Part shown: piece by piece, positions 11,734 to 22,340 of the stretch | Numbering within the stretch: position 1 is the stretch's first letter | How the letters are laid out: each line of letters opens with the position of its first letter | From: Archaeoglobus fulgidus DSM 4304 | Lineage (GTDB): Archaea > Halobacteriota > Archaeoglobi > Archaeoglobales > Archaeoglobaceae | Direction: 5' to 3' | NCBI RefSeq assembly: GCF_000008665.1 | Contig: NC_000917.1 | Coordinates: forward strand, 1,470,001-1,502,000 | DNA: 32,000 nt | Translations under genes and position numbers: made by a program | The notes under the pieces: model-generated | Told to the model about the DNA's origin: nothing | Databases searched by the model: none | The model's input: only the letters and a program-made list of their open reading frames with translations

Positions 11734-12092
11734 TGATGCGCTTTTCCAAGTTTCTGAAAGTTGAGGCAGACATCGTCGTGGCAAGGCACGCTCTGGTGAT
11801 GGACGAGACGAAGAGCAAAGCTGAGCCCGTCATATTCCTCCATCCTGAATTCGCCAAGAGGAGCGGTGTGAAGGAGGGGGATGTGGTTGAGGTTGAGGCT
11901 AACGGCAGAACTGTGAAGCTTAGAGCAAAGCTATCAGAAAACGCTCCCGAGAATGGTGGGATAATGCCCAACGGCATCTTCGCGAGCTACCTGACAGGCT
12001 TTGATGGTTTCAAGAGGTTCAAGGCCAATATTGAGGTGGCTGAGGGGGAGCCGACATCGTTTGAGGAGATTCTCGAAAAAATAAAAGGTTAA
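11733..12092 (+). CDS. fwdD: Formylmethanofuran dehydrogenase subunit D-like (molybdopterin dinucleotide-binding beta-barrel domain)
   Basis: About 119 aa with the typical FwdD/molydop_binding pattern (VIFLHPEFAKRSGVKEGDVVEVEANGRTVKLRAKLSENAPENGGIMP). SD AAGGAGGG lies at 11719-11726. The start overlaps the fwdB stop. Confidence 0.8.
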   Translation: MMRFSKFLKVEADIVVARHALVMDETKSKAEPVIFLHPEFAKRSGVKEGDVVEVEANGRTVKLRAKLSENAPENGGIMPNGIFASYLTGFDGFKRFKANIEVAEGEPTSFEEILEKIKG

Positions 12093-14821
12093 GAAACAAC
12101 AATATTTTTCACAACCACTTTTACAACCTTGTAGCTATAGTCAATCACGGCCATTTTCACCGTGTACTCCCCCGGTGAGCCGAAGGACATTGTTGTTGTT
12201 GCCCCCATCCTCATTCGGCCGTTGCTGAACACCCAGATGATCTGTTTATAGTTTATTCCTTCAACGTAGGCCTTGAAAGTAATTCTTTGACCTGCCTTTG
12301 GCTCTTCTGGCGTGTAGGTGAAGTCGGCAACAACCGCTTTCTCTTCGTAGGTGTAGCTTCCAACATTGCCCGCAAGGTCTTCCATGGTTATCTTAATGGT
12401 TGAATCTGCGATGCTGCACTTCCAGACGTCTCCTTCTCTCTGCATCTCAATACCGTTGGCCCTGGCCCACTTCAACTCTTCCGACGGTTTTACGATGAGC
12501 GTGTCGCTATTCTTTTCTACACTGAGAACTTCAGGTGGCTTTGTATCGAGAGTAAAGGTTAGCCTTTCACTTGCCGCATTCAAAGCTTCAACCCACCACG
12601 TGTGGTCTCCGTCAGCAATGTTTGCGTTTACAGTAATTTCCCCTGAACCATAGCCCTCATACACGGCGTTGCCGTCAACGTAGAGCGTAAAGGCAGCTTC
12701 AACGGGCAGCACAAATTTGAATTCTGCCTTGTTTGTTACGCCACTCGGCTCAAGCAGCTCTATCTGAATTTCAGGTAGGTTTATTTCAATGCTGTTAGCA
12801 TTTCCGGCCTTGTCAATAGCGGTGAGCTTTGCATGGGTTGATTTGACCACAACATCCCAGCTAATTCCGTCTCCACTTACACTGCAGTCACCTTCATCTA
12901 CTCTCAGCTCAACTTCTTCCGAGGTTCTGAGAACGACCTTGTAGCCATTATCGCTCCACCCCTCCTCAACTACAGTTATTTCAGGCTTGGTGATATCAAC
13001 TGTAATCAGAACGGTTTCTTCAGCCTTGTTTCCGTCATGGTCGATGGCGACAACTTTGACCTCATGTTTTCCTTCCGTGAGGGTGAGCTCCGGGGCTGTT
13101 TCAACACCATCCAGCAGGTAAATCACCTCATCCACCGCAGTTTCCGCATCATAGGCGCTGACAGCTAAGCTTAGCTCTGTGTAGTTTATGTACTCTGGAA
13201 GGGCCGGAAGCTCAATGACGGGTGTGTTGATGTCCCTGAGTGTTATATTGACGGTCATGTCGCCATCCGCTATGAAGGTGTGCTCAGCATAGCCCTCGGC
13301 AGAAACTGTTACAACAGCACCCTTTTCAACCATCAACGTGAAATAACCGTCATCATCCGTCTTTGTCATTTCTGAGCCCGCTTCAACAACCGCATCAACA
13401 GGCTTTCCGAGGGAGTTGAGAACGTAGCCCTCAACGGTAACCATAGGCTCATAAACTCTCAGGATTGTGGTTGTTGAGTTCTTTAACCCCTTGTCGTCGC
13501 ATGCGGTGATTTTGACCTGATACTCCCCACTCTTCTCGTAAACGTGGTTGATTCCCGGAGCTACCCACGAAGTTCCATCGCCGAACTCCCACTTAACCCA
13601 GACAACTTTACCATCCGGGTCGTAGGATAGGGATTTGAAGAATACCGGCTCTCCTGCCACCGGCTTTTCGGGAGTAATTTCGAAGAGAACCACTGGTGGC
13701 TGATTCTTTGAAACCTGCATGTTCATAGCTGCTGCAAAGGCCCTGTAAGCGTCAACGATACCGCTGCCCGACTTAACGTCCTTCCCAGCAATCTCAATGT
13801 CCGTTGCTGATTCTTCAATTGCCCTCTTAACGTCTTCTGGCGTAAAATCGGTATTTGCCTGAAGCAGTAGCGCAGCTATTCCCGAAACATGCGGTGTTGC
13901 CATTGACGTGCCTGAAAGGGAAGCGTAGCCCCCATCCTTCCACGTTGAAACAACCGCCACACCCGGAGCGACGACGTCGGGCTTAATGTACTCTGGATTG
14001 TAGCCAACAGGCCCGCGGCTGCTGAAGTAAGCAACTTTGCCGGCTTTGTCCACAGCTCCAACAGTTATTGCGTTCTCTGCCGAGCCGGGAGAGGCTATGC
14101 TCCTTTCCCCAAGCTCTCCCGAGTTCCCTGCAGCGATTACCGCCACAACTCCCCTTCTCACAATGTCGTTCACAGCCTCGCTCAGTATGTCGTGTCCGTT
14201 GGACGGGTAAACCACGTAGGCTGTAACGTCTGCCTCAACCTTTCTGTCTCCCGAATTTGTGAGCCTGATGGTCCAGTTGCCCTTTTCGAGGACAGTCGAT
14301 GGTGAATACTGGCAGTCGAAGTAAGAACTTGTGACGGTGCACTGAGGCTTTACTGCAGTCCCTGACGGTGAGATGAGCTGGAATTCGAAGCTTTCGGGAA
14401 TTTCTTTGGACAACGTGTGCATTACGATGAACCAGCCATTTGCAGTCCAGCCAGCGTTGCCGGTCTCAACGTCATCGTAAAAGCCGATTTCGGGTATTGC
14501 TATGTTGTCTATCCAGACATAGTTGTCACCGTACGACTCAAAAATTAGCCTTCCCGCAGTGCTGGAGCTTAACTGTATGCTCTTCCAGCTGTTGTAGGTT
14601 GCAGAAGACAGAGAGAGCAGCTCCTTGGTTTCCCCGTTCGCCTCAAGCTTAACAACAAAGCTCCCTCTCACATACCCTATAATGTCGAACTTAAGCGTGA
14701 AGGGCCTGTCAACGTCCATTTCAAGGGTCCTTGTTCCACCGTAAGGCGGCGCAGCCCAGACGTAGTTCACCGTGTCGGGATTAACCCTCAGCTTAATGTA
14801 ACTCGGCACGAAGTTGTCCAT
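12089..14821 (-). CDS. S8 protease, C-terminal fragment (inserted domains, Asn/Ser catalytic motifs, PKD, CarboxypepD_reg-like and Ig-like repeats)
   Basis: AAGNSG and GTSMATPHVSG are present, plus a PKD motif (WEFGDGT), a GYVLNSLGKPV...TDDDGYF domain and a second PKD-like domain at the C-terminus. The frame stays open upstream of ATG 14821, up to about 14958. Confidence 0.8.
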   Translation of the reverse strand: MDNFVPSYIKLRVNPDTVNYVWAAPPYGGTRTLEMDVDRPFTLKFDIIGYVRGSFVVKLEANGETKELLSLSSATYNSWKSIQLSSSTAGRLIFESYGDNYVWIDNIAIPEIGFYDDVETGNAGWTANGWFIVMHTLSKEIPESFEFQLISPSGTAVKPQCTVTSSYFDCQYSPSTVLEKGNWTIRLTNSGDRKVEADVTAYVVYPSNGHDILSEAVNDIVRRGVVAVIAAGNSGELGERSIASPGSAENAITVGAVDKAGKVAYFSSRGPVGYNPEYIKPDVVAPGVAVVSTWKDGGYASLSGTSMATPHVSGIAALLLQANTDFTPEDVKRAIEESATDIEIAGKDVKSGSGIVDAYRAFAAAMNMQVSKNQPPVVLFEITPEKPVAGEPVFFKSLSYDPDGKVVWVKWEFGDGTSWVAPGINHVYEKSGEYQVKITACDDKGLKNSTTTILRVYEPMVTVEGYVLNSLGKPVDAVVEAGSEMTKTDDDGYFTLMVEKGAVVTVSAEGYAEHTFIADGDMTVNITLRDINTPVIELPALPEYINYTELSLAVSAYDAETAVDEVIYLLDGVETAPELTLTEGKHEVKVVAIDHDGNKAEETVLITVDITKPEITVVEEGWSDNGYKVVLRTSEEVELRVDEGDCSVSGDGISWDVVVKSTHAKLTAIDKAGNANSIEINLPEIQIELLEPSGVTNKAEFKFVLPVEAAFTLYVDGNAVYEGYGSGEITVNANIADGDHTWWVEALNAASERLTFTLDTKPPEVLSVEKNSDTLIVKPSEELKWARANGIEMQREGDVWKCSIADSTIKITMEDLAGNVGSYTYEEKAVVADFTYTPEEPKAGQRITFKAYVEGINYKQIIWVFSNGRMRMGATTTMSFGSPGEYTVKMAVIDYSYKVVKVVVKNIVVS

Positions 14822-15600
14822 GTCATCGTAAACTTCTCCGAGGCTCGAATAAACCGGAAGATTAATTTCGTAGCTCTCTCCTGAGTTGAGAACTTTTCCG
14901 TAGCTCCCCCCAATCCGGGCAATGCTCCAAGACTCATGCTTATCACGTCCGCACCATTTTCATAGGCCCACTGTATCCCCATGAGAACGGTTGAGAGCTT
15001 CCCGCTCCCCCTGCTGTCGAGAACCTTTGCTGCCATGATTTCCGCTTCCGGAGCGACTCCTGTTATCTCTCCAGCGATTGTTCCTGCAACGTGAGTTCCG
15101 TGTCCGTTATCGTCGTAGGGCTCAGTTTGCCCGTTGACGAAGTCAGCAAAGGCTACGATTCTATCAGCAAAATCCGGGTGCCTCGCAACGCCGGTGTCTA
15201 TGACGGCAACCTTAACCCCGCTACCCTTGTAGCCCATTTTCCATACTCCCGAGACGTTTATGAAGTCAAGGTTCCACACGTCTGCTTCACTGACAGACGT
15301 TGCTGTGGTGGAGAAGAGATCAGGCATGGATAGCATCTGTATTTCGTCAACGGCCTTTACGTCGACGTCGGGATAGACTCCTTCAACATAGGGATTCTCC
15401 GACAGCTTTTTGATTTCATCTTCACTCAAATCAGCCGCAATGACGCTGAACAGCTCTATTTTCTTTGCTCCGTGCATTGTGGCAGCAACGTCATCCAGAT
15501 ATCCGTCCGCAACCTTTATAATCACTGGAACTCCTGCTGCCGTTTGGAGACTCACTATTATCACCAAGCTCATTATTATTATTGTCCTTATACTCATCAT
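14788..15600 (-). CDS. S8 protease, N-terminal fragment (signal peptide, propeptide, Asp and His catalytic motifs)
   Basis: MMSIRTIIIMSLVIIVSLQTAAG is the signal, and DTGV, HGTHVAG and SMSLG motifs follow. The last 37 codons after ...LGG (ATEKF...) look out of frame. Confidence 0.8.
   Translation of the reverse strand: MMSIRTIIIMSLVIIVSLQTAAGVPVIIKVADGYLDDVAATMHGAKKIELFSVIAADLSEDEIKKLSENPYVEGVYPDVDVKAVDEIQMLSMPDLFSTTATSVSEADVWNLDFINVSGVWKMGYKGSGVKVAVIDTGVARHPDFADRIVAFADFVNGQTEPYDDNGHGTHVAGTIAGEITGVAPEAEIMAAKVLDSRGSGKLSTVLMGIQWAYENGADVISMSLGALPGLGGATEKFSTQERATKLIFRFIRASEKFTMTWTTSCRVTLS
14906..14911 (-). other. C6 (plus) / G6 (minus) homopolymer at the protease frameshift; the minus strand reads G_GGG_GGA in the upstream frame
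   Basis: The minus strand reads ccc gga ttG GGG GGA gct. A -1 shift, or one extra G, gives ...LGGSYGKVLNSGESYEINLP..., which is continuous with the 910-aa ORF. Confidence 0.8.
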
Positions 15601-15629: not shown

Positions 15630-15751
15630 TTTTTCTCACAAAATAGTAAATACCGAAAAAATTAGAATAACAAATTTAAGAATTAGTTAAAAAATATTAA
15701 CAACATTAAAAAAATTTATCCAAACTCAAGATAAAATTTCGAAATTGCTAC

Positions 15752-16741
15752 TCATTTTTCTCTGCAGTAGTAGAGCACACCGCCATGTATGAAGAAAAAC
15801 ACACCCTTCTCTCTGTCATAGAACAGATGCTCGAACGTCTCTTCAGCGGCCTTTGAAATGTCCTCAAACCTCTCCACCTCAACCATTTCCAGATTTGTTT
15901 CAGGCATTCTGGCAAAGGAAACTTCTTTCAGCTTCTTTTCCCAAGAAACTCTTTCTATTTCCCTTTCAAGGGAGGAAACATCGCTGTATTTAGTTCTGTA
16001 AACTACCGACAGGCCGGCGAAGATTATAGAAACTGTGCATAATGCTGCCGGAATTACCTTCATATGCAGCGGTTTTTGAACTTCAACGACTCTGGTGGAA
16101 GGCATTTCAAAATCTCTTGTCTCGTTAAGCGTTGAGAAGGAGTAGTAGGTGCTCTGCACGTCTATTGGTATCTTAAAGCTTAATGTTTCGTCAACGTCTT
16201 TGCCCGTAATCTTTCCGTAGTAATGCACGCTGACATCGATTCTGGCCCCTGTTTTTCCAAGATAAACACCAAAGGAGTTCTGAGCTTCGTTAATTTTTGA
16301 CTTTAGGTCTGTGACATTTATTTTGAAGTTCGTTTTGATTTCTCCTCTGGATGTGTTGGATGCAGCGTAGTATACCTTCTCCCAGACGGGAGCGTCGCTA
16401 ACCTCGTAGAAGTAAACGATTTTTGCTTCAGTTTCGATGGTTATATCCCCTCTTGGAGCTGTTGTGAAGTAAAATTCTCCTGAATATTCGGGGGTGAGGG
16501 AGTAGGAGTACACCGGGAGGGTGACGAAGGACCCATTAGCCCATATCGGGTTGTCCTTCTTGACCTCTGCCCCACCGCTGAAGTATGCGAGTGCGGAGTA
16601 GTGCCTGATACTAATTTGAGTTTCCTTTGTCTCGGGGATTGTGGCCCAGTAAAGTGCGTAGGCTGATGCAACCAGCGTGATGAGCGAGATTATCAGAACC
16701 GGGATATACCATTTTCTCACGATTAGTTTAAAATTATTCAT
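15752..16741 (-). CDS. Bitopic membrane protein of unknown function; last gene of the TasA-like operon
   Basis: 329 aa. TM1 spans about residues 11-32 and is followed by a beta-rich domain of about 190 aa, predicted external. TM2 spans about 228-248 (VIPAALCTVSIIFAGLSVVY), followed by an acidic cytoplasmic tail of about 80 aa. The external domain contains SALAYFSGG. Confidence 0.6.
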   Translation of the reverse strand: MNNFKLIVRKWYIPVLIISLITLVASAYALYWATIPETKETQISIRHYSALAYFSGGAEVKKDNPIWANGSFVTLPVYSYSLTPEYSGEFYFTTAPRGDITIETEAKIVYFYEVSDAPVWEKVYYAASNTSRGEIKTNFKINVTDLKSKINEAQNSFGVYLGKTGARIDVSVHYYGKITGKDVDETLSFKIPIDVQSTYYSFSTLNETRDFEMPSTRVVEVQKPLHMKVIPAALCTVSIIFAGLSVVYRTKYSDVSSLEREIERVSWEKKLKEVSFARMPETNLEMVEVERFEDISKAAEETFEHLFYDREKGVFFFIHGGVLYYCREK

Positions 16742-16750
16742 GTTATTTTT

Positions 16751-17623
16751 TCACCCTCCTCCTATATGTTTCTTTCGAGGTTTGTAGTAAACTGGTTTGA
16801 GCAGCAGCGTTGCAATTGCTGAGGTAACGAGGGGTGTGAGCCAGAGGATGCCCAGCCTGTAGAGGGGATAGAGGAGGATTAAAGGCATTGCACCGTTGAT
16901 GGCGGTGTTGAAGCTGTAGCTTGCAGACTCGCCCGGGTTGAGAACGGAGTAGTAAGGGGGCTCGGAGTGGAAAAGATAAACAGTGAGGAAGCCTTTGTTG
17001 ATTACACCCCCATCAACGACCTCAAGCGTGGGATTGAAAGCGGCGAAGGAAATAATCAGCGCTGCAGCGAAGGTTACAACCAAATAGTGTGTTTTTAGAG
17101 CTTTTTTGTTTCTTCTCTCATGCATTAACTTGATTCTTTCCCTCCTTTTCAGTATCTTTTCCTCCATTGTGAGATTCCTGAACTCTGAAGCCATCAAAAC
17201 AGATGCGGGGATGAGAATGAACAGCAGGTACATCATAATATTCCGGTTCTTGAATTCGTGGAAGAGGTAGCCAATGTAAGGTATTCCGAATAGAAATTTG
17301 CCGTAAACGTCTTTTTCGTGCACATCAAAGGGGTCAACATCCTCAACAGCATCGCCCTTCGTCTTAAAGTAGCCATCCCCTATTTCCACAACTCTGTGGG
17401 TTATCAAAACGGACTTCTTCCCCGAAGGGTCCTTGAATGCCACAACATCCCCCAGAGAAACGTCCGAGCTTCTTTTAACAACAATAAGGTCTCCCGGATG
17501 CATGAGCGGCTCCATGCTGCTGCTCAGAACGACGAGGATGCGCACATCATCGCTATAAACCTCATAGGCGGAAAAGAGGATGAAAACAACAAATAGAGCA
17601 GTTATCAAACCACTAATATTCAT
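16751..17623 (-). CDS. Signal peptidase I, S26B (SipW/Sec11 type), long form with a multi-TM C-terminal extension
   Basis: After an N-terminal TM come Ser box VLSSSMEP, His box LITHRVV and TKGDAVEDVD. Residues from about 146 to 290 add a basic helix (RRERIKLMHERRNKK) and roughly three more hydrophobic segments. Confidence 0.8.
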   Translation of the reverse strand: MNISGLITALFVVFILFSAYEVYSDDVRILVVLSSSMEPLMHPGDLIVVKRSSDVSLGDVVAFKDPSGKKSVLITHRVVEIGDGYFKTKGDAVEDVDPFDVHEKDVYGKFLFGIPYIGYLFHEFKNRNIMMYLLFILIPASVLMASEFRNLTMEEKILKRRERIKLMHERRNKKALKTHYLVVTFAAALIISFAAFNPTLEVVDGGVINKGFLTVYLFHSEPPYYSVLNPGESASYSFNTAINGAMPLILLYPLYRLGILWLTPLVTSAIATLLLKPVYYKPRKKHIGGG

Positions 17624-17624
17624 T

Positions 17625-18059
17625 CTACTCCTCCAGAGTTATTGTCACGGGAATTTCAACGACCTTATATGGGTAAGAGGGATATGAGATGGTGAGTTCT
17701 CCGACATAGGTTCCGTTTGTTTGTGGAGAAAGGTGCATTCCGACCTCCCAGTCATTCACGTTCTTCCTCAAAGAAAACTGAACAAAATCATCCCCATCCC
17801 AGCTCAGCTTTGGTATTCCGGGAGCATCAACTATTCTGAAAATTACATCGTAGCTGTACTCCTCATTGGGCTTACCGTAGAAATCTATTTTTACAGGGCT
17901 CTCCTTTTTTACAAAGCTCACGGTGGGGTAGATTTCAGAGGCCCAGTGCCCGCTTTTGAATGTGCTTCTCTGAGACTCTACGTCGTAGAAGTAGCTAAGA
18001 GTTCCTGAGACCATTATAAGGAATCCTATTACGGTTGCGAAGAGCAGAATTTTTCTCAT
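17625..18059 (-). CDS. Small secreted protein with a SipW-type signal motif (possible minor fibre subunit)
   Basis: 144 aa. MRKILLFATVIGFLIMVSGTLSYFYDVES shares the N-terminal motif with the four TasA-like ORFs, but the protein lacks their C-terminal YQGD motif. Both gene junctions overlap or abut the neighbours. Confidence 0.65.
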   Translation of the reverse strand: MRKILLFATVIGFLIMVSGTLSYFYDVESQRSTFKSGHWASEIYPTVSFVKKESPVKIDFYGKPNEEYSYDVIFRIVDAPGIPKLSWDGDDFVQFSLRKNVNDWEVGMHLSPQTNGTYVGELTISYPSYPYKVVEIPVTITLEE

Positions 18060-18511
18060 TTCAACTCACCAACTATACTCTTTATCTCAATAATTAATAA
18101 AGCTATTCCCGGGATGAGGATTAAGAGCAGATAACCCGGCAGAGTTCTAACAACACTGCCAAGCAATCCAAGCTTCGGGATTTTTGCCACATAAACCCCA
18201 ACAACGCTGTCATAGCTTACGGGCTCATCCTCTCTCGGCAGGTTGTCACCTTTCGTGATTATCGCCTCGGACGTTTTCTCAACCACTCTGTGCGTGATGA
18301 GGTATGTTTTTCCATCAATGGTTTTCTTGTAGGTTACGATATCCCCTACTTCCACATCGGAAGGATTTTTGGGGAAAATTAAAATCAGGTCTCCCGTCTC
18401 CAGTTCGGGGAGCATGGAAGTGCCGTAGGTGTTCAGAACCCTCACTCCACTAAGGTAGAGGGCCAGAATTGTCAGAAGAATGGCTGATAGAAGATAAAGT
18501 TTCGGCCTCAT
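18056..18511 (-). CDS. Signal peptidase I, S26B (SipW/Sec11 type), short form
   Basis: 151 aa with an N-terminal TM, Ser box YGTSMLP, His box LITHRVV, TKGDNLPREDEP and a C-terminal TM. ATGA overlaps occur at both ends. Confidence 0.85.
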   Translation of the reverse strand: MRPKLYLLSAILLTILALYLSGVRVLNTYGTSMLPELETGDLILIFPKNPSDVEVGDIVTYKKTIDGKTYLITHRVVEKTSEAIITKGDNLPREDEPVSYDSVVGVYVAKIPKLGLLGSVVRTLPGYLLLILIPGIALLIIEIKSIVGELK

Positions 18512-19440
18512 CTCACAACAACTCCGTGGGCGGCGATGCAGTTGCCGTAGTCAACCACGTACTCATCAAAGTTAGAATTTAGCCCCTCGTGTTTGTAGGG
18601 GAATTTTCCCGGAGCGGACTTGGGAGGTGGACAGTCTCCGACGTAGAGGTGGGTTTCAGTCAGCATCCATCCACCATTTACGCTGTATTTCACCCTTATT
18701 TTCCCGCCAGCATCCTCGACTGTCAGGGAGCCCACGTGAATGTGCCGACCTGCGTAAATGGGAACCTGCAGCCCTCCACCGGTGTATGTGAAGTAACCAC
18801 CCCATCCCTGTCCAAACTCATGGAAATCTCCGCCTATCGCCCAGCAGGTCTCCTCCTCACCTCCATTGCCATCAACCTGCTCAAGGGACAGCTCAAGGTC
18901 AAACTTTGCCAAATCTCCCTGATACTCATTCTCAGCACTGCTGTTGATGTGGAAGGTGAAGTGGACGTCGCAAACCTCCCCCGGAGCAATGGGTGAGGTG
19001 TAGAATTTTAAATCCTCAAGTTCCCTCAGCGTTTTGTTGTCGTTCTCCACAATCAACTGGGAAAAGCTCTCGCACTCCACCCATATGCCAGTGAAGGTCT
19101 GATAGGAGATGTTGTTTATTTCATTAAGATAGTCGAATCTCGCCTCTTCCTCTGTAAACACTCCTCCAAAGTCCCTCACGTTGAAGATTTTAAGGTCAAC
19201 AACAGCCGGATTGTTTCCGGCGTTCTTAATCCTTATTATCTTCTCTTTGTATTCGCAGGGCTTCGCCTCGATGTCGATGAGCTTACCCGGGTTGTCAACC
19301 CATCCGTTTTGCCAAACTTTGAGGTCAATGTAGCCTGTTGTGTAGGTTGATGGGGAAGATTCAGCATCTGAAAAGTAGGCCAGAGTGCTTCCGGCAAATA
19401 AAATTAAAGAAATTGAAAAAAATATAAGGTAATTTCTCAT
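18508..19440 (-). CDS. TasA/camelysin-like secreted protein fused to an extra C-terminal Gly/aromatic-rich domain
   Basis: The TasA-like core is STLAYFSDAES, TGYIDLKV, AKPCEYK, IKNAGNNPAVV and ENEYQGDLAKFDLELSLEQ. A GNGGEEE linker follows, then about 114 further residues (18511-18852). Confidence 0.75.
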   Translation of the reverse strand: MRNYLIFFSISLILFAGSTLAYFSDAESSPSTYTTGYIDLKVWQNGWVDNPGKLIDIEAKPCEYKEKIIRIKNAGNNPAVVDLKIFNVRDFGGVFTEEEARFDYLNEINNISYQTFTGIWVECESFSQLIVENDNKTLRELEDLKFYTSPIAPGEVCDVHFTFHINSSAENEYQGDLAKFDLELSLEQVDGNGGEEETCWAIGGDFHEFGQGWGGYFTYTGGGLQVPIYAGRHIHVGSLTVEDAGGKIRVKYSVNGGWMLTETHLYVGDCPPPKSAPGKFPYKHEGLNSNFDEYVVDYGNCIAAHGVVVR

Positions 19441-20192
19441 TATTCGCTCGCCACCTGCTCAAGCTTCACGATGATGTCGAAGAAAGTTATGTCGCCCTGA
19501 TACTTGTTGCCTGCGTCAGTTGAAAAGTCGATGTACATGGCCAATTCGAGGTAGCTGTCGGTTCCGTTGTACCAACCGTCGTTGTCTATTTCTGGCGGAG
19601 GTATGTTGTCAAAGCCTGTCATCGCCAAATCCTCCAAATCCATGTAGCCGTTGGAGTTTGCGTCAACGAGGTTGTAAGGTGCAGCAAGTCCGGTGGCTGT
19701 TGGCTGATAGTTGTCTATAATCTTGTCGTCCCTGACCAGAGCGTTATTGGTGTACCACTTGAAGTGCAGATGATGTAGTTTGATGTAGGCCCCCATTCCG
19801 TTAGCTCCAAGATGTCCGGTGGCGTAAGGGACGCCAATTATGGGAGACTGGCTGACGTCCGAATCACTCTCTGGCCCCGCAACAAATCCATCTGTTGCAT
19901 TGCCGTTGTCATCCTCGTAGTACTCAAAGCTGAAGTTTATCTCAAGATGGTCTCCTTTGTTCTCCCCCCAGTTCCATATTCTCAGCTTCCCGTCCTCTCC
20001 GGGCTCGCCCGGCTTCCAGTCATAGATGTCGAGTGCAACGTGCCCCGGAATATCATTGGTAAGGCCTATGTCCATCGTTCCCGCTTCAAAGTAGTTCTCT
20101 CCCGTCTCTTCCACATCAGCAAAGTAGGCGTAGGTGCTGAGGGTTGCCATCGCTATGGCAGCGATAAACACAAAGGCTGCAGCGGTCTTCAT
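19440..20192 (-). CDS. TasA/camelysin-like secreted protein with Asp-rich, Ca-binding-like insertions
   Basis: [27 protein letters not shown] and [19 protein letters not shown] are present. SD GAGGTG lies 6 nt upstream. An EF-hand/dockerin-like loop [12 protein letters not shown] lies at 19629-19664. Confidence 0.75.
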
Positions 20193-20202
20193 TTTTCACA
20201 CC

Positions 20203-20802
20203 TCAGTATGGGGCACCGTCATCATTAACCTGGAAGGCCTTGAAGACGATGTCAAACTGCATCTGGTCGCCCTGATACTCGTTTCCTGCATCGCTTTTCA
20301 TGTGGAAGCTGAACAGCACATTCACGCACTCGTCTGGCTGAAGTGTTGTCAGCTCGTACCAAGTTCCCTCAACGTCCCTCACTGTCAAAACTCCTTCCTT
20401 AACAAGAACGTTCCAGCCTTCACCTTTGTTGTAGGCCAAGTCAAACCACGTCACGTTCGAAAGGTCGTTTATCAGCCCACTTGGGTCAGCTTCAAGCTCC
20501 GGCTCGGTAACTTCATTGTTCGACTCGGTGATGTTGTCTATTCTCGTGTAAACGACGGCCGGATTTGTTCCATTGTTGCAGACGAGCTTGTAAACGCAGA
20601 AGTTCAAGCTCGGCTTTGCGTCATCCGTAACAATCACAGATGTAGTCCATGGATTCTCGCCGTCAACTGAGATATCAATGGTGCCCGCAGTGATGGTGTT
20701 GTTGTCGCTCACCTCAACGTCGTAGAAGTAGGTGAGGGTGCCAGTAGCAATCACTGCCATCATGAATCCGATGGAAAGGATGCTGAGCAGCAGTTTTCTC
20801 AT
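20203..20802 (-). CDS. TasA/camelysin-like secreted protein
   Basis: GTLTYFYDVEVS, AGTIDISV, DDAKPS, CNNGTNPAVV and GNEYQGDQMQFDIVFKAFQ are present. I prefer ATG 20802 (SD GGTGA 5 nt upstream) to GTG 20811. Confidence 0.75.
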   Translation of the reverse strand: MRKLLLSILSIGFMMAVIATGTLTYFYDVEVSDNNTITAGTIDISVDGENPWTTSVIVTDDAKPSLNFCVYKLVCNNGTNPAVVYTRIDNITESNNEVTEPELEADPSGLINDLSNVTWFDLAYNKGEGWNVLVKEGVLTVRDVEGTWYELTTLQPDECVNVLFSFHMKSDAGNEYQGDQMQFDIVFKAFQVNDDGAPY

Positions 20803-20829
20803 TTCACTCACCTGAAAAAATTAGAGGAG

Positions 20830-21582
20830 TCACTCGAAGGGGTTGCTGTCGTCGTTGAGCTGCGTAACGGCAAACTTCAGGGTTGCTCCCCAGCTATCAG
20901 ACTGGGCCATGTTGTCAGTATCGGTAGGTGTCCACTCCCAGTAGATGCCGAAGCAGTATGTCTGGCATGCTTCCATGTATCCTCCCGGTAGATACTGGCT
21001 GAGGTTGAAGTTCGCATCGGAGATATCTTTCAGGTATCCGCTCCACAGCAGCTGTTCGCTGCCATCTCCGTTTCCATCAACAAACGTATCCCTACAGCCG
21101 AAAGGACAACCATCGTAGAAGTCATACTTGTTGTCGCAGTCGTCATCCCTCCAGATCATCACGTGGATGTACTCATCAAGCTCTCCATACCAAGCTCCAT
21201 CTGTGGTATCTCCTGCTTCCTGCTCTGGCTCCGTAAGGCCATTGTCATCGTCTTCCGTAACATCAACGGCAAACCACAGATAGCCTGGGTTGTTGTAGAG
21301 GTGCAGGCTAACTGTCATCTCTCCGCTATCTCCCGGCTTCACATCGTCGAGCTGCCAGAAGTAGTCCACAGATGCATTAAGGTCTTTCTCGCTAAAGTTG
21401 TGGTGGTAAACCTGACCATCCCACTTCCAGTATGTGCTGTTCAGGTCCACTTTCAGGTCGAGGCTGCCAGCCGTGAAGGTTCCCGGCGCCATTTCGGTGT
21501 CGCTGAAGTAGGCAAGGGTTCCCGCTCCAAGCCCAATTCCAATCAGCCCCACTACAAGGAGGCTGTACCAAACCTTTTTCAC
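20830..21582 (-). CDS. TasA/camelysin-like secreted protein with an Asp/Cys-rich insertion; first gene of the operon
   Basis: [20 protein letters not shown] and VKPGDSGE are present, with a degenerate C-terminal motif ([14 protein letters not shown]). SD GAGGTGA lies 6 nt upstream of GTG 21582; the ORF track starts at TTG 21588. Confidence 0.7.
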
Positions 21583-21616
21583 TTCCAATCACCTCAAGAT
21601 GAAAAACGTCTTCATT

Positions 21617-21649
21617 TTTAATATGCTTATTGAAATATAATTATGAATC
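21617..21649 (-). promoter_or_regulatory. Promoter module of the TasA-like operon: upstream element CATAATTATA.TTCAA plus TATA-like CATATTAAA
   Basis: The minus strand reads GATTCATAATTATATTTCAATAAGCATATTAAA, ending 34 nt upstream of GTG 21582. It matches 21948-21980 at 27 of 33 positions. Confidence 0.55.
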
Positions 21650-21715
21650 AAAAATAAGTATTGCAAATTCGGATTGAAAATCGGGAAAGAAGCTGTGTAT
21701 TCATTTTAGGTAACA

Positions 21716-21928
21716 CTAATACACATCAAGCCTAACCAACCTCCGCCCACTTTCGCTGAGCTTCAGCTTCAGGTTTGCTCTTTCGACGAAATCCATCTCC
21801 ATCAGAAACTCCAGCACTTTTCTCAGCATCGCCCTCTCAACCCTCAGTTTTTCGGCCAATTCCCTTTCGGTCATCTCCTCCTCATTCAGAATGAGCAGAA
21901 TCTCATCGATAAGTTCTGGAACTTTCAT
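21716..21928 (-). CDS. Small winged-helix DNA-binding protein (putative transcriptional regulator)
   Basis: A 70-aa form starts MKVPELIDEILLILNEEEMTERELAEKLRVERAMLRKVLEFLMEMDFVER, which is an HTH-like pattern. The 89-aa form in the ORF track would place the conserved promoter module inside the coding region. Confidence 0.6.
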   Translation of the reverse strand: MKVPELIDEILLILNEEEMTERELAEKLRVERAMLRKVLEFLMEMDFVERANLKLKLSESGRRLVRLDVY

Positions 21929-21947
21929 AATACTAATTTTCCTAAGA

Positions 21948-21980
21948 TTTAATATGAATTTTGAAGTATAATTATGGATT
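21948..21980 (-). promoter_or_regulatory. Promoter module of the small wHTH gene, paralogous to the operon promoter
   Basis: The minus strand reads AATCCATAATTATACTTCAAAATTCATATTAAA, ending 19 nt upstream of ATG 21928. The TATA-like element is about 24 nt from the ATG, giving leaderless geometry. Confidence 0.55.
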
Positions 21981-22049
21981 TGCATTAAGTAACTGTCTTA
22001 CGAAATCATTTTTCGTATTTGGGCTTATCGCAAAGACCAAAAAATATTG

Positions 22050-22340
22050 TCAAAAAATTGAGTTTTCAACGGCATTTTTCAAAGCCTGAAGGTCTTCCTC
22101 AATTTCGCTGAATTTTTGTATGAATTCCCTTCCCTTTTCAGTTGTTCTGTACTTCGTTCTTTTACCATCAGTAACTGGCTCAATAAATCCTTCCTTCAAA
22201 AGGCAGTTAATGTAATCCTGAGCAACCTTAGAGTTCAAATTCACTCTGTAAACAATTTTGGTAATGTTAACTCCATTTCCGGAGCACGTCTGAAGAATTT
22301 CAGCCATGATTTCGATTTTGGACCTTCTCATTTCTGCCAC
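22050..22340 (-). CDS. Winged-helix transcriptional regulator (archaeal small wHTH family)
   Basis: SKIEIMAEILQTCSGNGVNITKIVYRVNLNSKVAQDYINCLLKEGFIE...RTKYRTTEKGREFIQ is typical of small archaeal wHTH proteins. The start is GTG 22340 or ATG 22331 (SD GGGTGG). Confidence 0.7.
   Translation of the reverse strand: MAEMRRSKIEIMAEILQTCSGNGVNITKIVYRVNLNSKVAQDYINCLLKEGFIEPVTDGKRTKYRTTEKGREFIQKFSEIEEDLQALKNAVENSIF

Follow-up and report, generated by a model that had tools for sequence, protein, structure and literature searches.

The fibres of Bacillus TasA are assembled by donor-strand exchange (PMC9674648). TapA nucleates these fibres with its own N-terminal strand, and the peptidase SipW processes both TapA and TasA. 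Archaeal systems have been described as well: TafE pili are assembled by strand donation and promote biofilm (PMC12337348), and in Tafi the deletion of tafA or tafD abolishes the structure, all seven taf genes being needed for assembly in Haloferax volcanii (PMC11821415). Loci that bring together TasA-superfamily subunits, minor subunits, type I signal peptidase (SPase I) and a DUF5305 protein have been reported for Tafi and AbpX, the DUF5305 protein being TafG in Tafi and a proposed partner of the peptidase, to which it is sometimes fused (PMC11821415; AbpX preprint bioRxiv 10.64898/2026.01.04.697558). Here we analyse a locus of Archaeoglobus fulgidus DSM 4304, AF_1654-AF_1661, which lies in a window of 32,000 nucleotides (the whole stretch of DNA that was studied, positions 1,470,001 to 1,502,000 of NC_000917.1; coordinates below are those of the window). 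We think, with a probability of about 0.7, that this is a TasA-superfamily operon for a donor-strand filament whose subunits are exported by Sec and processed by peptidases.

The locus consists of eight consecutive open reading frames (ORFs) on the minus strand, between 15752 and 21588, which we call g1 to g8 in the order of transcription. Both this arrangement, confirmed in the ORF list, and the junctions of 27, 10, -1, -4, -4, +1 and +9 nucleotides (nt) agree exactly with the first-pass annotation of the sequence, as do the places of the two Shine-Dalgarno elements, GAGGTGA before g1 and TGAGGTG overlapping the stop of g2. In UniProt g1 is "AF_1661" (NCBI name "TasA family protein [Archaeoglobus fulgidus]"); the other tags follow by gene order, and the locus is therefore AF_1654-AF_1661. 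A protein identical to g8 is also encoded in A. fulgidus CP006577.1 and in several metagenome contigs. The unit probably extends past the eight genes, with two upstream genes for winged helix-turn-helix (wHTH) proteins and a conserved downstream S8 protease.

Comparison with described systems

With the tapA-sipW-tasA operon of B. subtilis and the sipW-tasA-calY operon of B. cereus the locus shares PF12389 subunits, the TIGR04088 signal peptide and an S26B peptidase within the operon. The N-terminal strand F-x-D...T-F-x-x-G-T-L-D-L and the C-terminal N-x-YQG motif are those of Bacillus TasA, and g6 is like TapA in that a TasA-like N-terminal strand precedes a beta-sandwich of another kind. Whereas Bacillus has one or two subunits, four paralogous ones are found here. 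Also unlike Bacillus, there are two peptidases, one of which has four transmembrane (TM) segments, and they are accompanied by a DUF5305 partner, an S8 protease and candidate wHTH regulators.

Our locus shares with Tafi (Haloarcula hispanica, Natrinema sp. J7-2), and with the taf-like A. fulgidus cluster AF_2076-AF_2083, a two-domain, four-TM peptidase (TafD) beside a DUF5305 protein (TafG) (PMC11821415, PMC12337348). Other common features are a small regulator of transcription, several secreted subunits with a donor strand (presumed here) and, in the non-halophilic versions, a Sec signal. The Tafi subunits, however, are of the TafA, TafE or DUF1102 kind and those studied here are PF12389/TasA-like; also unlike Tafi, there is no twin-arginine translocation (Tat) motif and no TafF-like TM terminator, and there is an extra short peptidase. 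The taf-like A. fulgidus cluster, with DUF1102 subunits, is given in PMC11821415, where AF_1654-1661 is not mentioned. AF_1654-AF_1661 is a second, separate locus in A. fulgidus that the Tafi papers leave unmentioned.

The AbpX loci of Pyrodictium abyssi (bioRxiv 10.64898/2026.01.04.697558) are alike in that a fibril subunit of the TasA superfamily is encoded beside an SPase I of its own; calcium dependence is a possible further likeness, and larger AbpX-like loci add tip proteins, minor subunits and DUF5305. The peptidase that goes with AbpX contains ten TM helices, in contrast to two and four here, and the AbpX subunit is matched weakly by our g2-family profile. On the cluster map of the same preprint, the TasA-like proteins of Methanobacteriota form a separate, uncharacterised cluster beside bacterial TasA. 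Finally, AbpA/AbpB of Pyrobaculum calidifontis (PMC9245690) offer a TasA-superfamily jelly-roll, a donor-strand filament, a wHTH gene in the operon and a proposed role in biofilm. Their operon, unlike the present locus, is without a dedicated peptidase; AbpA is related only remotely, at the profile-profile level, and AbpB is a TapA-like three-domain protein.

The novelty of the locus had been overrated in the first-pass annotation. NCBI already names these proteins "TasA family protein", PF12389/TasA homologues in Archaeoglobales are listed in PMC9245690, a preprint on cannulae uses "TasA from Archaeoglobus fulgidus (A0A075WE38)" as a representative of the TasA superfamily (10.1101/2024.12.30.630787), and experiments on the peptidase/DUF5305 module have been made in Tafi, as cited above. 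A literature search by the locus tags AF1654-AF1661, and by AF1657, found no description of the locus. What is undescribed so far is the locus taken as a whole, the pairing of a short with a long peptidase in it, the immunoglobulin (Ig)-like strand-bearing protein and the conserved protease neighbour. The finding changes no concept, and it gives a well-defined, testable target. Under stress A. fulgidus forms a biofilm (cited in PMC9245690); for Archaeoglobales neither a matrix protein nor a filament other than type IV is known so far, and AF_1654-AF_1661 and AF_2076-2083 are the obvious candidates. The archaeal PF12389 proteins are, according to the AbpX preprint (bioRxiv 10.64898/2026.01.04.697558), the branch of the superfamily closest to bacterial TasA. 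A thermostable, multi-subunit version of TasA with its own peptidases would help to date and trace the spread of TasA fibres across domains, would test the function of DUF5305, and could yield a thermostable self-assembling protein material.

TasA-family subunits

The first four genes encode the subunits. The product of g1 (20830-21582, AF_1661) has 250 amino acids (aa) when read from the GTG at 21582, a likelier start than the TTG at 21588 that would extend the gene to 20830-21588, and it has insertions rich in Asp and Cys. The minimal subunit is g2 (20203-20802, AF_1660; 199 aa from ATG), g3 (19440-20192, AF_1659; 250 aa) contains a long insertion, and g4 (18508-19440, AF_1658; 310 aa) joins a TasA-family domain to an extra C-terminal domain. 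In searches with hidden Markov models (HMMs), the four products score above the cut-offs of both relevant families, as had been predicted: PF12389 (Peptidase_M73; gathering cut-off 22.5 bits) gives 32.5, 39.4, 28.8 and 37.0 bits for g1 to g4 (E from 1e-6 to 8e-10), and TIGR04088 (SipW-dependent-type signal peptide; cut-off 19 bits) gives 27.4-41.4 bits, with g3 at 27.4 and g1 at 41.4. No other Pfam family matched g1-g4 at E<=1. All four are strongly acidic and have a SipW-type signal peptide and a single N-terminal hydrophobic segment; the twin-arginine (RR) motif is absent from their N-termini (MKKVW.., MRKLL.., MKTAA.., MRNYL..). Their scores with NF046066, the equivalog model of B. subtilis TasA, are 14-23 bits, far below the cut-off of 450, and g1-g4 are therefore members of the family and not TasA orthologues.

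Four shared motifs had been claimed for these products. Three of them, G-T-L-x-Y-F-x-D-x-E, AG(S/T)xD(L/I) and KPG/KP, are indeed found in g1-g4, but the exact C-terminal N-x-YQGD is confined to g2-g4, g1 having a divergent version. In a family alignment of 76 sequences built on g2, most of the invariant or near-invariant columns fall at residues 26-44, which comprise the predicted cleavage site (G-T-L-A/T/S before Y-F-x-D-x-E) and the T-F-T-A-G-T-L-D-L strand, the presumed donor strand. The conservation of these residues gives indirect support to a donor-strand polymerisation that g1-g4 would share.

The same alignment, used as a profile against the PDB, matches B. subtilis TasA (5of1/8aur, E 4e-7) over the whole domain, including ATFASGTLDL and NKYQGNSIKLQFSFEATQ of TasA, and matches AbpX with E 0.0043 over 55 positions only. 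A search of the PDB with the single sequence of g4 gave no match, and its relation emerged with the family profile. Among g1-g4, modelling was done for g2. The AlphaFold2 model is a beta-sandwich (predicted local distance difference test, pLDDT, 85.3; predicted template-modelling score, pTM, 0.73), for which the top Foldseek match in the PDB is the TasA fibre 8aur_A (E 6.5e-5, prob 1.00, template-modelling score 0.53), followed lower down by TasA 5of1 (prob 1.00), CanA and the Saci_0406 thread. The TasA-like jelly-roll anticipated for the monomer is thus supported by the model. Taken together, the HMM and fold tests uphold the TasA/camelysin-like character that the first-pass annotation had given to the locus, and from this character we infer the fibre itself.

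Within Archaeoglobaceae the subunits are 70-90% identical (g1 73-79%, g3 75-85%); the processing proteins, at 52-69%, are less conserved. Relative to the minimal g2, the insertions of g1 and g3 are rich in Asp, Asn and Gly. An EF-hand-like loop in the insertion of g3 and the sequence DGNGDGSE in g1, both noticed by eye only, are possible Ca2+ sites, which are of interest because the assembly of AbpX and of cannulae is triggered by calcium.

In g4, which PF12389 matched full length, the TasA-family domain spans residues 9-192. The C-terminal domain that follows (about 118 aa, 18508-18861) has no match in Pfam, and a stand-alone homologue of 182 aa (E 4e-22) is encoded in a TasA-like locus of a Hadarchaeota metagenome-assembled genome (L008/L086, 10378-10926). 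This suggests that the domain may be a mobile accessory module of TasA-like loci. The whole of g4 is missing in two Archaeoglobaceae relatives (L010 and L013).

The Ig-like protein g6

Five distinct TasA-like subunits had been counted in the first-pass annotation; g6 (17625-18059, AF_1656; 144 aa), however, is below both cut-offs, with 14.2 bits for PF12389 and 18.3 bits, just under the threshold, for TIGR04088, and its body is Ig-like, so that four subunits stand. In g6 a signal peptide and an N-terminal strand of the TasA type precede an Ig-like sandwich. When g6 was aligned with the TasA profile by hhalign, residues 1-39 alone were aligned (prob 95.6). The AlphaFold2 model (pLDDT 82.4) is an Ig-like sandwich matched in Foldseek by filamin, Rib, Ig and similar domains, and neither TasA nor TapA (6HQC) is among the top 50 matches. 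The variant N-terminal strand, F-x-S-G-H-W-A-S-E-I, is invariant among the orthologues; these are confined to Archaeoglobaceae, with 7 proteins in one search and, in another, 2 clusters out of 1.84 billion representatives. From the model, g6 is best described as a small secreted protein in which the signal peptide of the family and a variant N-terminal strand are mounted on an unrelated body. We rejected a truncated TasA as a description of g6, given the hhalign match limited to residues 1-39 and the Ig-like model. The weak matches between the mature domain of g6 and giant Rib-repeat proteins were also set aside, as generic Ig-like similarity and not dependable homology.

Signal peptidases and the DUF5305 protein

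Two SipW-type signal peptidases had been proposed, and g5 and g7 are in fact of the Sec11/SipW type (S26B), with the catalytic Ser and His and the conserved Asp intact. Their TIGR02228 scores are 84.8 bits (g5) and 80.8 bits (g7) with a cut-off of 51.85, and both fall under the cut-off of the bacterial-type model TIGR02227. With NF046067, the equivalog model of Bacillus SipW, they reach 61.5 and 67.7 bits, the cut-off being 190. The best solved relative of the peptidase profile in the PDB is SEC11A (E 6.5e-23; SEC11A/C about 1e-22), with bacterial SPase I at 5.5e-4. Ser32, His74, Asp89 and Asp95 (g5 numbering) are invariant across 12 short and long peptidases.

The short peptidase g5 (18056-18511, AF_1657; 151 aa) has two hydrophobic segments, taken as two TM. 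The long one, g7 (16751-17623, AF_1655; 290 aa), has four; a loop on the cytoplasmic side is basic, and some 55 aa between TM3 and TM4 make up a second external segment. By comparison of descriptions, this layout equals the four-TM, two-domain architecture given for TafD in PMC11821415. In a neighbour-joining tree without support values the long peptidases, a haloarchaeal one included, make up one clade, and the short ones are scattered among peptidases of other TasA-like loci.

The last gene, g8 (15752-16741, AF_1654; 329 aa), encodes a TafG-like membrane protein with two TM, of which a large portion lies outside the cell and the C-terminal portion in the cytoplasm. It scores 83.4 bits with PF17231 (DUF5305; cut-off 29). 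A membrane protein had been announced at this position, and correctly so, but the label was generic: g8 is a DUF5305 protein of the TafG type, the proposed peptidase partner. A word-indexed search with g8 returned only 5 proteins, all of Archaeoglobi, and a profile made of 7 DUF5305 proteins had no match by sequence in the PDB.

Conservation of the locus

When genomes were scanned with the family alignment built on g2, 339 relatives came up. The loci of the best 80 were analysed, their neighbouring genes being identified with locally built HMMs. These 80 loci come from Archaeoglobaceae, Patescibacteria, Dehalococcoidales, Nanoarchaeia, Methanomassiliicoccales, ANME-1, Hadarchaeota and Bathyarchaeia, and a Sec11/SipW-type peptidase is present in the flank of 63 of them, in archaea, bacteria of the candidate phyla radiation (CPR) and Chloroflexota. 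Linkage to such a peptidase is thus a general trait of the TasA-like genes.

The complete order of three TasA-like genes, short peptidase, long peptidase and DUF5305 was seen, among the 80 loci, only in Archaeoglobaceae (L010-L013), in an uncultured archaeon (L019) and in a contig of Methanophagales/ANME-1 (L042). The genes g1-g3 are conserved in every related locus. The DUF5305 gene always follows the long peptidase, with a 4-nt overlap in L013 and L042; an HTH_45 gene precedes the cluster in every locus with the full layout, and an S8/PKD protease comes after DUF5305 in all of them but L042. The upstream neighbourhood of L010 differs, yet the block from HTH_45 to protease is kept.

As a separate observation, the closest relatives of g2 outside Archaeoglobi (30-37% identity; L014-L091) belong mostly to Patescibacteria/CPR, Dehalococcoidales and DPANN, and they nearly always adjoin a short Sec11/SipW-type peptidase, which points to a module of TasA and peptidase that has been widely exchanged across domains. 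A different elaboration of the same TasA-like theme is found on a Halolamina litorea contig (L009, 6413-15134), with proteins containing von Willebrand A (vWA) domains, one of them fused to a TasA-like N-terminus, a long Sec11-type peptidase of 359 aa, a collagen-like repeat protein and another TIGR04088 protein.

Proposed assembly and alternative explanations

In the filament operon that we propose, the subunits would be exported by Sec and cleaved by the dedicated peptidases after the small residues of G-T-L-(A/T/S), just ahead of Y-F-x-D-x-E, the long peptidase and DUF5305 presumably acting as a membrane complex, as proposed for TafD/TafG. Cleavage would release the conserved mature N-terminus (…T-F-T-A-G-x-L-D-L…), and homology suggests that the freed strand may then enter the beta-sandwich of the next subunit; polymerisation would therefore proceed outside the cell without chaperone or ATP. 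By analogy with the known systems, the shaft may be built of g1-g3, with g1 possibly the most abundant because it is the first gene, has a strong Shine-Dalgarno element and is followed by a T6 run. The proteins g4, with its extra C-terminal domain, and g6, whose Ig-like body bears a donor-type strand, would be accessory units specific to the lineage, g4 a candidate tip or adhesin and g6 a candidate nucleator or cap, comparable to TapA or TafC. Regulation of the operon may fall to the two wHTH proteins encoded upstream, and the downstream S8 protease would be a conserved partner. The likely role of the fibre is adhesion between cells or to surfaces and scaffolding of biofilm.

Several points weigh against this proposal. 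The structural match of g2 to TasA is moderate (16% identity at the score quoted above), the scores with the equivalog models of B. subtilis TasA and SipW are far below their cut-offs, and no membrane anchor or subunit for cell-wall attachment is evident in the cluster. Moreover, the roles of g1-g4 and g6 rest on analogy, and the AbpX preprint states that no archaeal PF12389 protein has been characterised (bioRxiv 10.64898/2026.01.04.697558).

A more ambitious version of the processing step can be imagined, in which the short and long Sec11-type peptidases and DUF5305 form a dedicated hetero-oligomeric signal-peptidase complex and a membrane platform that passes cleaved TasA-like subunits into the growing fibre. 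The locus would then be a fusion of a bacterial-type TasA/SipW module with an archaeal TafD/TafG module, and its constant neighbour, the S8 protease, would act as a functional partner, for instance for maturation, release or display on the fibre. In our opinion this is speculative, and unlikely to hold as a whole.

Among the alternatives to the filament operon, the one that fares best keeps the same parts and changes the product: a short, cell-anchored, heteropolymeric pilus of Tafi type (tip, adaptor, shaft and terminator) for attachment, in place of a released TasA-like matrix scaffold made mainly of one subunit. Several distinct paralogous subunits, the two-domain g4 among them, would suit such a pilus, and the TafD-like four-TM peptidase with DUF5305 is a hallmark of Tafi. 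However, none of the subunits has a C-terminal TM segment or another anchor, they belong to PF12389 and not to the DUF1102/TafA family, and both g4 and g6 are dispensable in related loci. We regard this pilus as possible, with more doubt than confidence.

The second alternative gives up polymerisation, the TasA-like proteins being secreted as monomeric surface or matrix proteins or as camelysin-like metalloproteases. The name of the Pfam family, Peptidase_M73, invites this idea, and a proteolytic theme is conceivable with a large secreted S8 protease as conserved neighbour. But it is the fibre-forming TasA and AbpX that match best in structure and sequence, conservation peaks in the donor-strand region and not at any catalytic-looking site, and there is no HExxH or other metalloprotease motif in g1-g4 or g6. 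We consider it quite improbable overall, and a metalloprotease of camelysin type was rejected for the absence of HExxH.

We give least credit to g5 and g7 being general signal peptidases that merely stand beside genes for secreted proteins, with eight genes that are not one system: every signal peptidase of archaea belongs to the Sec11/SipW type, which is why HMM matches alone do not show dedication, but the linkage to TasA-like genes in 63 of the 80 loci, the short-long-DUF5305 order kept over phylum-level distances, the start/stop overlaps that couple the genes and the existence in A. fulgidus of at least one further peptidase (AF_2078, in the separate taf-like locus) all speak against it.

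Neighbouring genes and transcription signals

Upstream of the proposed filament operon and on the same minus strand lie the two wHTH genes. The farther one (22050-22340; PF14947, 82 bits) encodes an HTH_45 protein, a candidate regulator of the cluster, whose homologues stand immediately before the cluster, in the same orientation in L010, L011, L013, L019 and L042 and divergently in the Bathyarchaeales locus L007. The nearer one (21716-21985; PF01978, 27 bits with a cut-off of 25.6) encodes a small TrmB/ArsR-like wHTH protein, of 70 aa if read from the ATG at 21928, as called in related contigs, and is found at the equivalent position only in Archaeoglobaceae.

Between these genes and g1, an AT-rich block of 45 nt (21614-21658, minus strand) with a TATA-like TAATTATATTT at 21643-21633 hardly varies among four genomes of Archaeoglobaceae, between which the proteins of the cluster share only 52-90% identity. 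Such conservation makes it a candidate promoter of g1 and a candidate operator to which the adjacent wHTH proteins may bind. The Shine-Dalgarno GAGGTGA of g1 (21589-21595, minus strand), 6 nt before the GTG, is invariant in the four-genome alignment.

Only three runs of T>=5 occur on the sense strand of the operon (5.8 kb), and one of them is the T6 run in the g1-g2 spacer (20815-20820, minus strand), a possible partial terminator or attenuator that might raise the g1 transcript over the downstream genes. Other than after g1, terminator-like T-runs are seen only after g8, where three (T7, T6 and T6; 15656-15714, minus strand) mark a likely archaeal terminator region. These runs lie in the 151-nt spacer between g8 and the protease gene and are followed by a TATA-like element before the latter. 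The arrangement fits a single transcription unit g1-g8 with possible attenuation after g1 and what may be a separate promoter for the protease. Scans of the window for Rfam families, tRNAs and tandem repeats gave nothing relevant. The g8-protease spacer also contains, at 15660-15700, a weak AT-rich tandem repeat of 21 nt (2 copies, 80% match), which is probably low-complexity terminator or promoter sequence.

The downstream neighbour (12089-15600, minus strand) is, according to Pfam, a subtilisin-like S8 protease with an I9 propeptide and PKD domains. Its gene is split near 14911 into ORFs of 270 and 910 aa by a G6 run that is G7 in CP006577.1, where the gene is intact and encodes 1170 aa. The split form is also found in the assemblies L002 and L005, and the frameshift could be either a real homopolymer variant between strains or a sequencing error. 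Intact orthologues of 1052-1176 aa follow DUF5305 in L001, L010, L011, L013 and L019.

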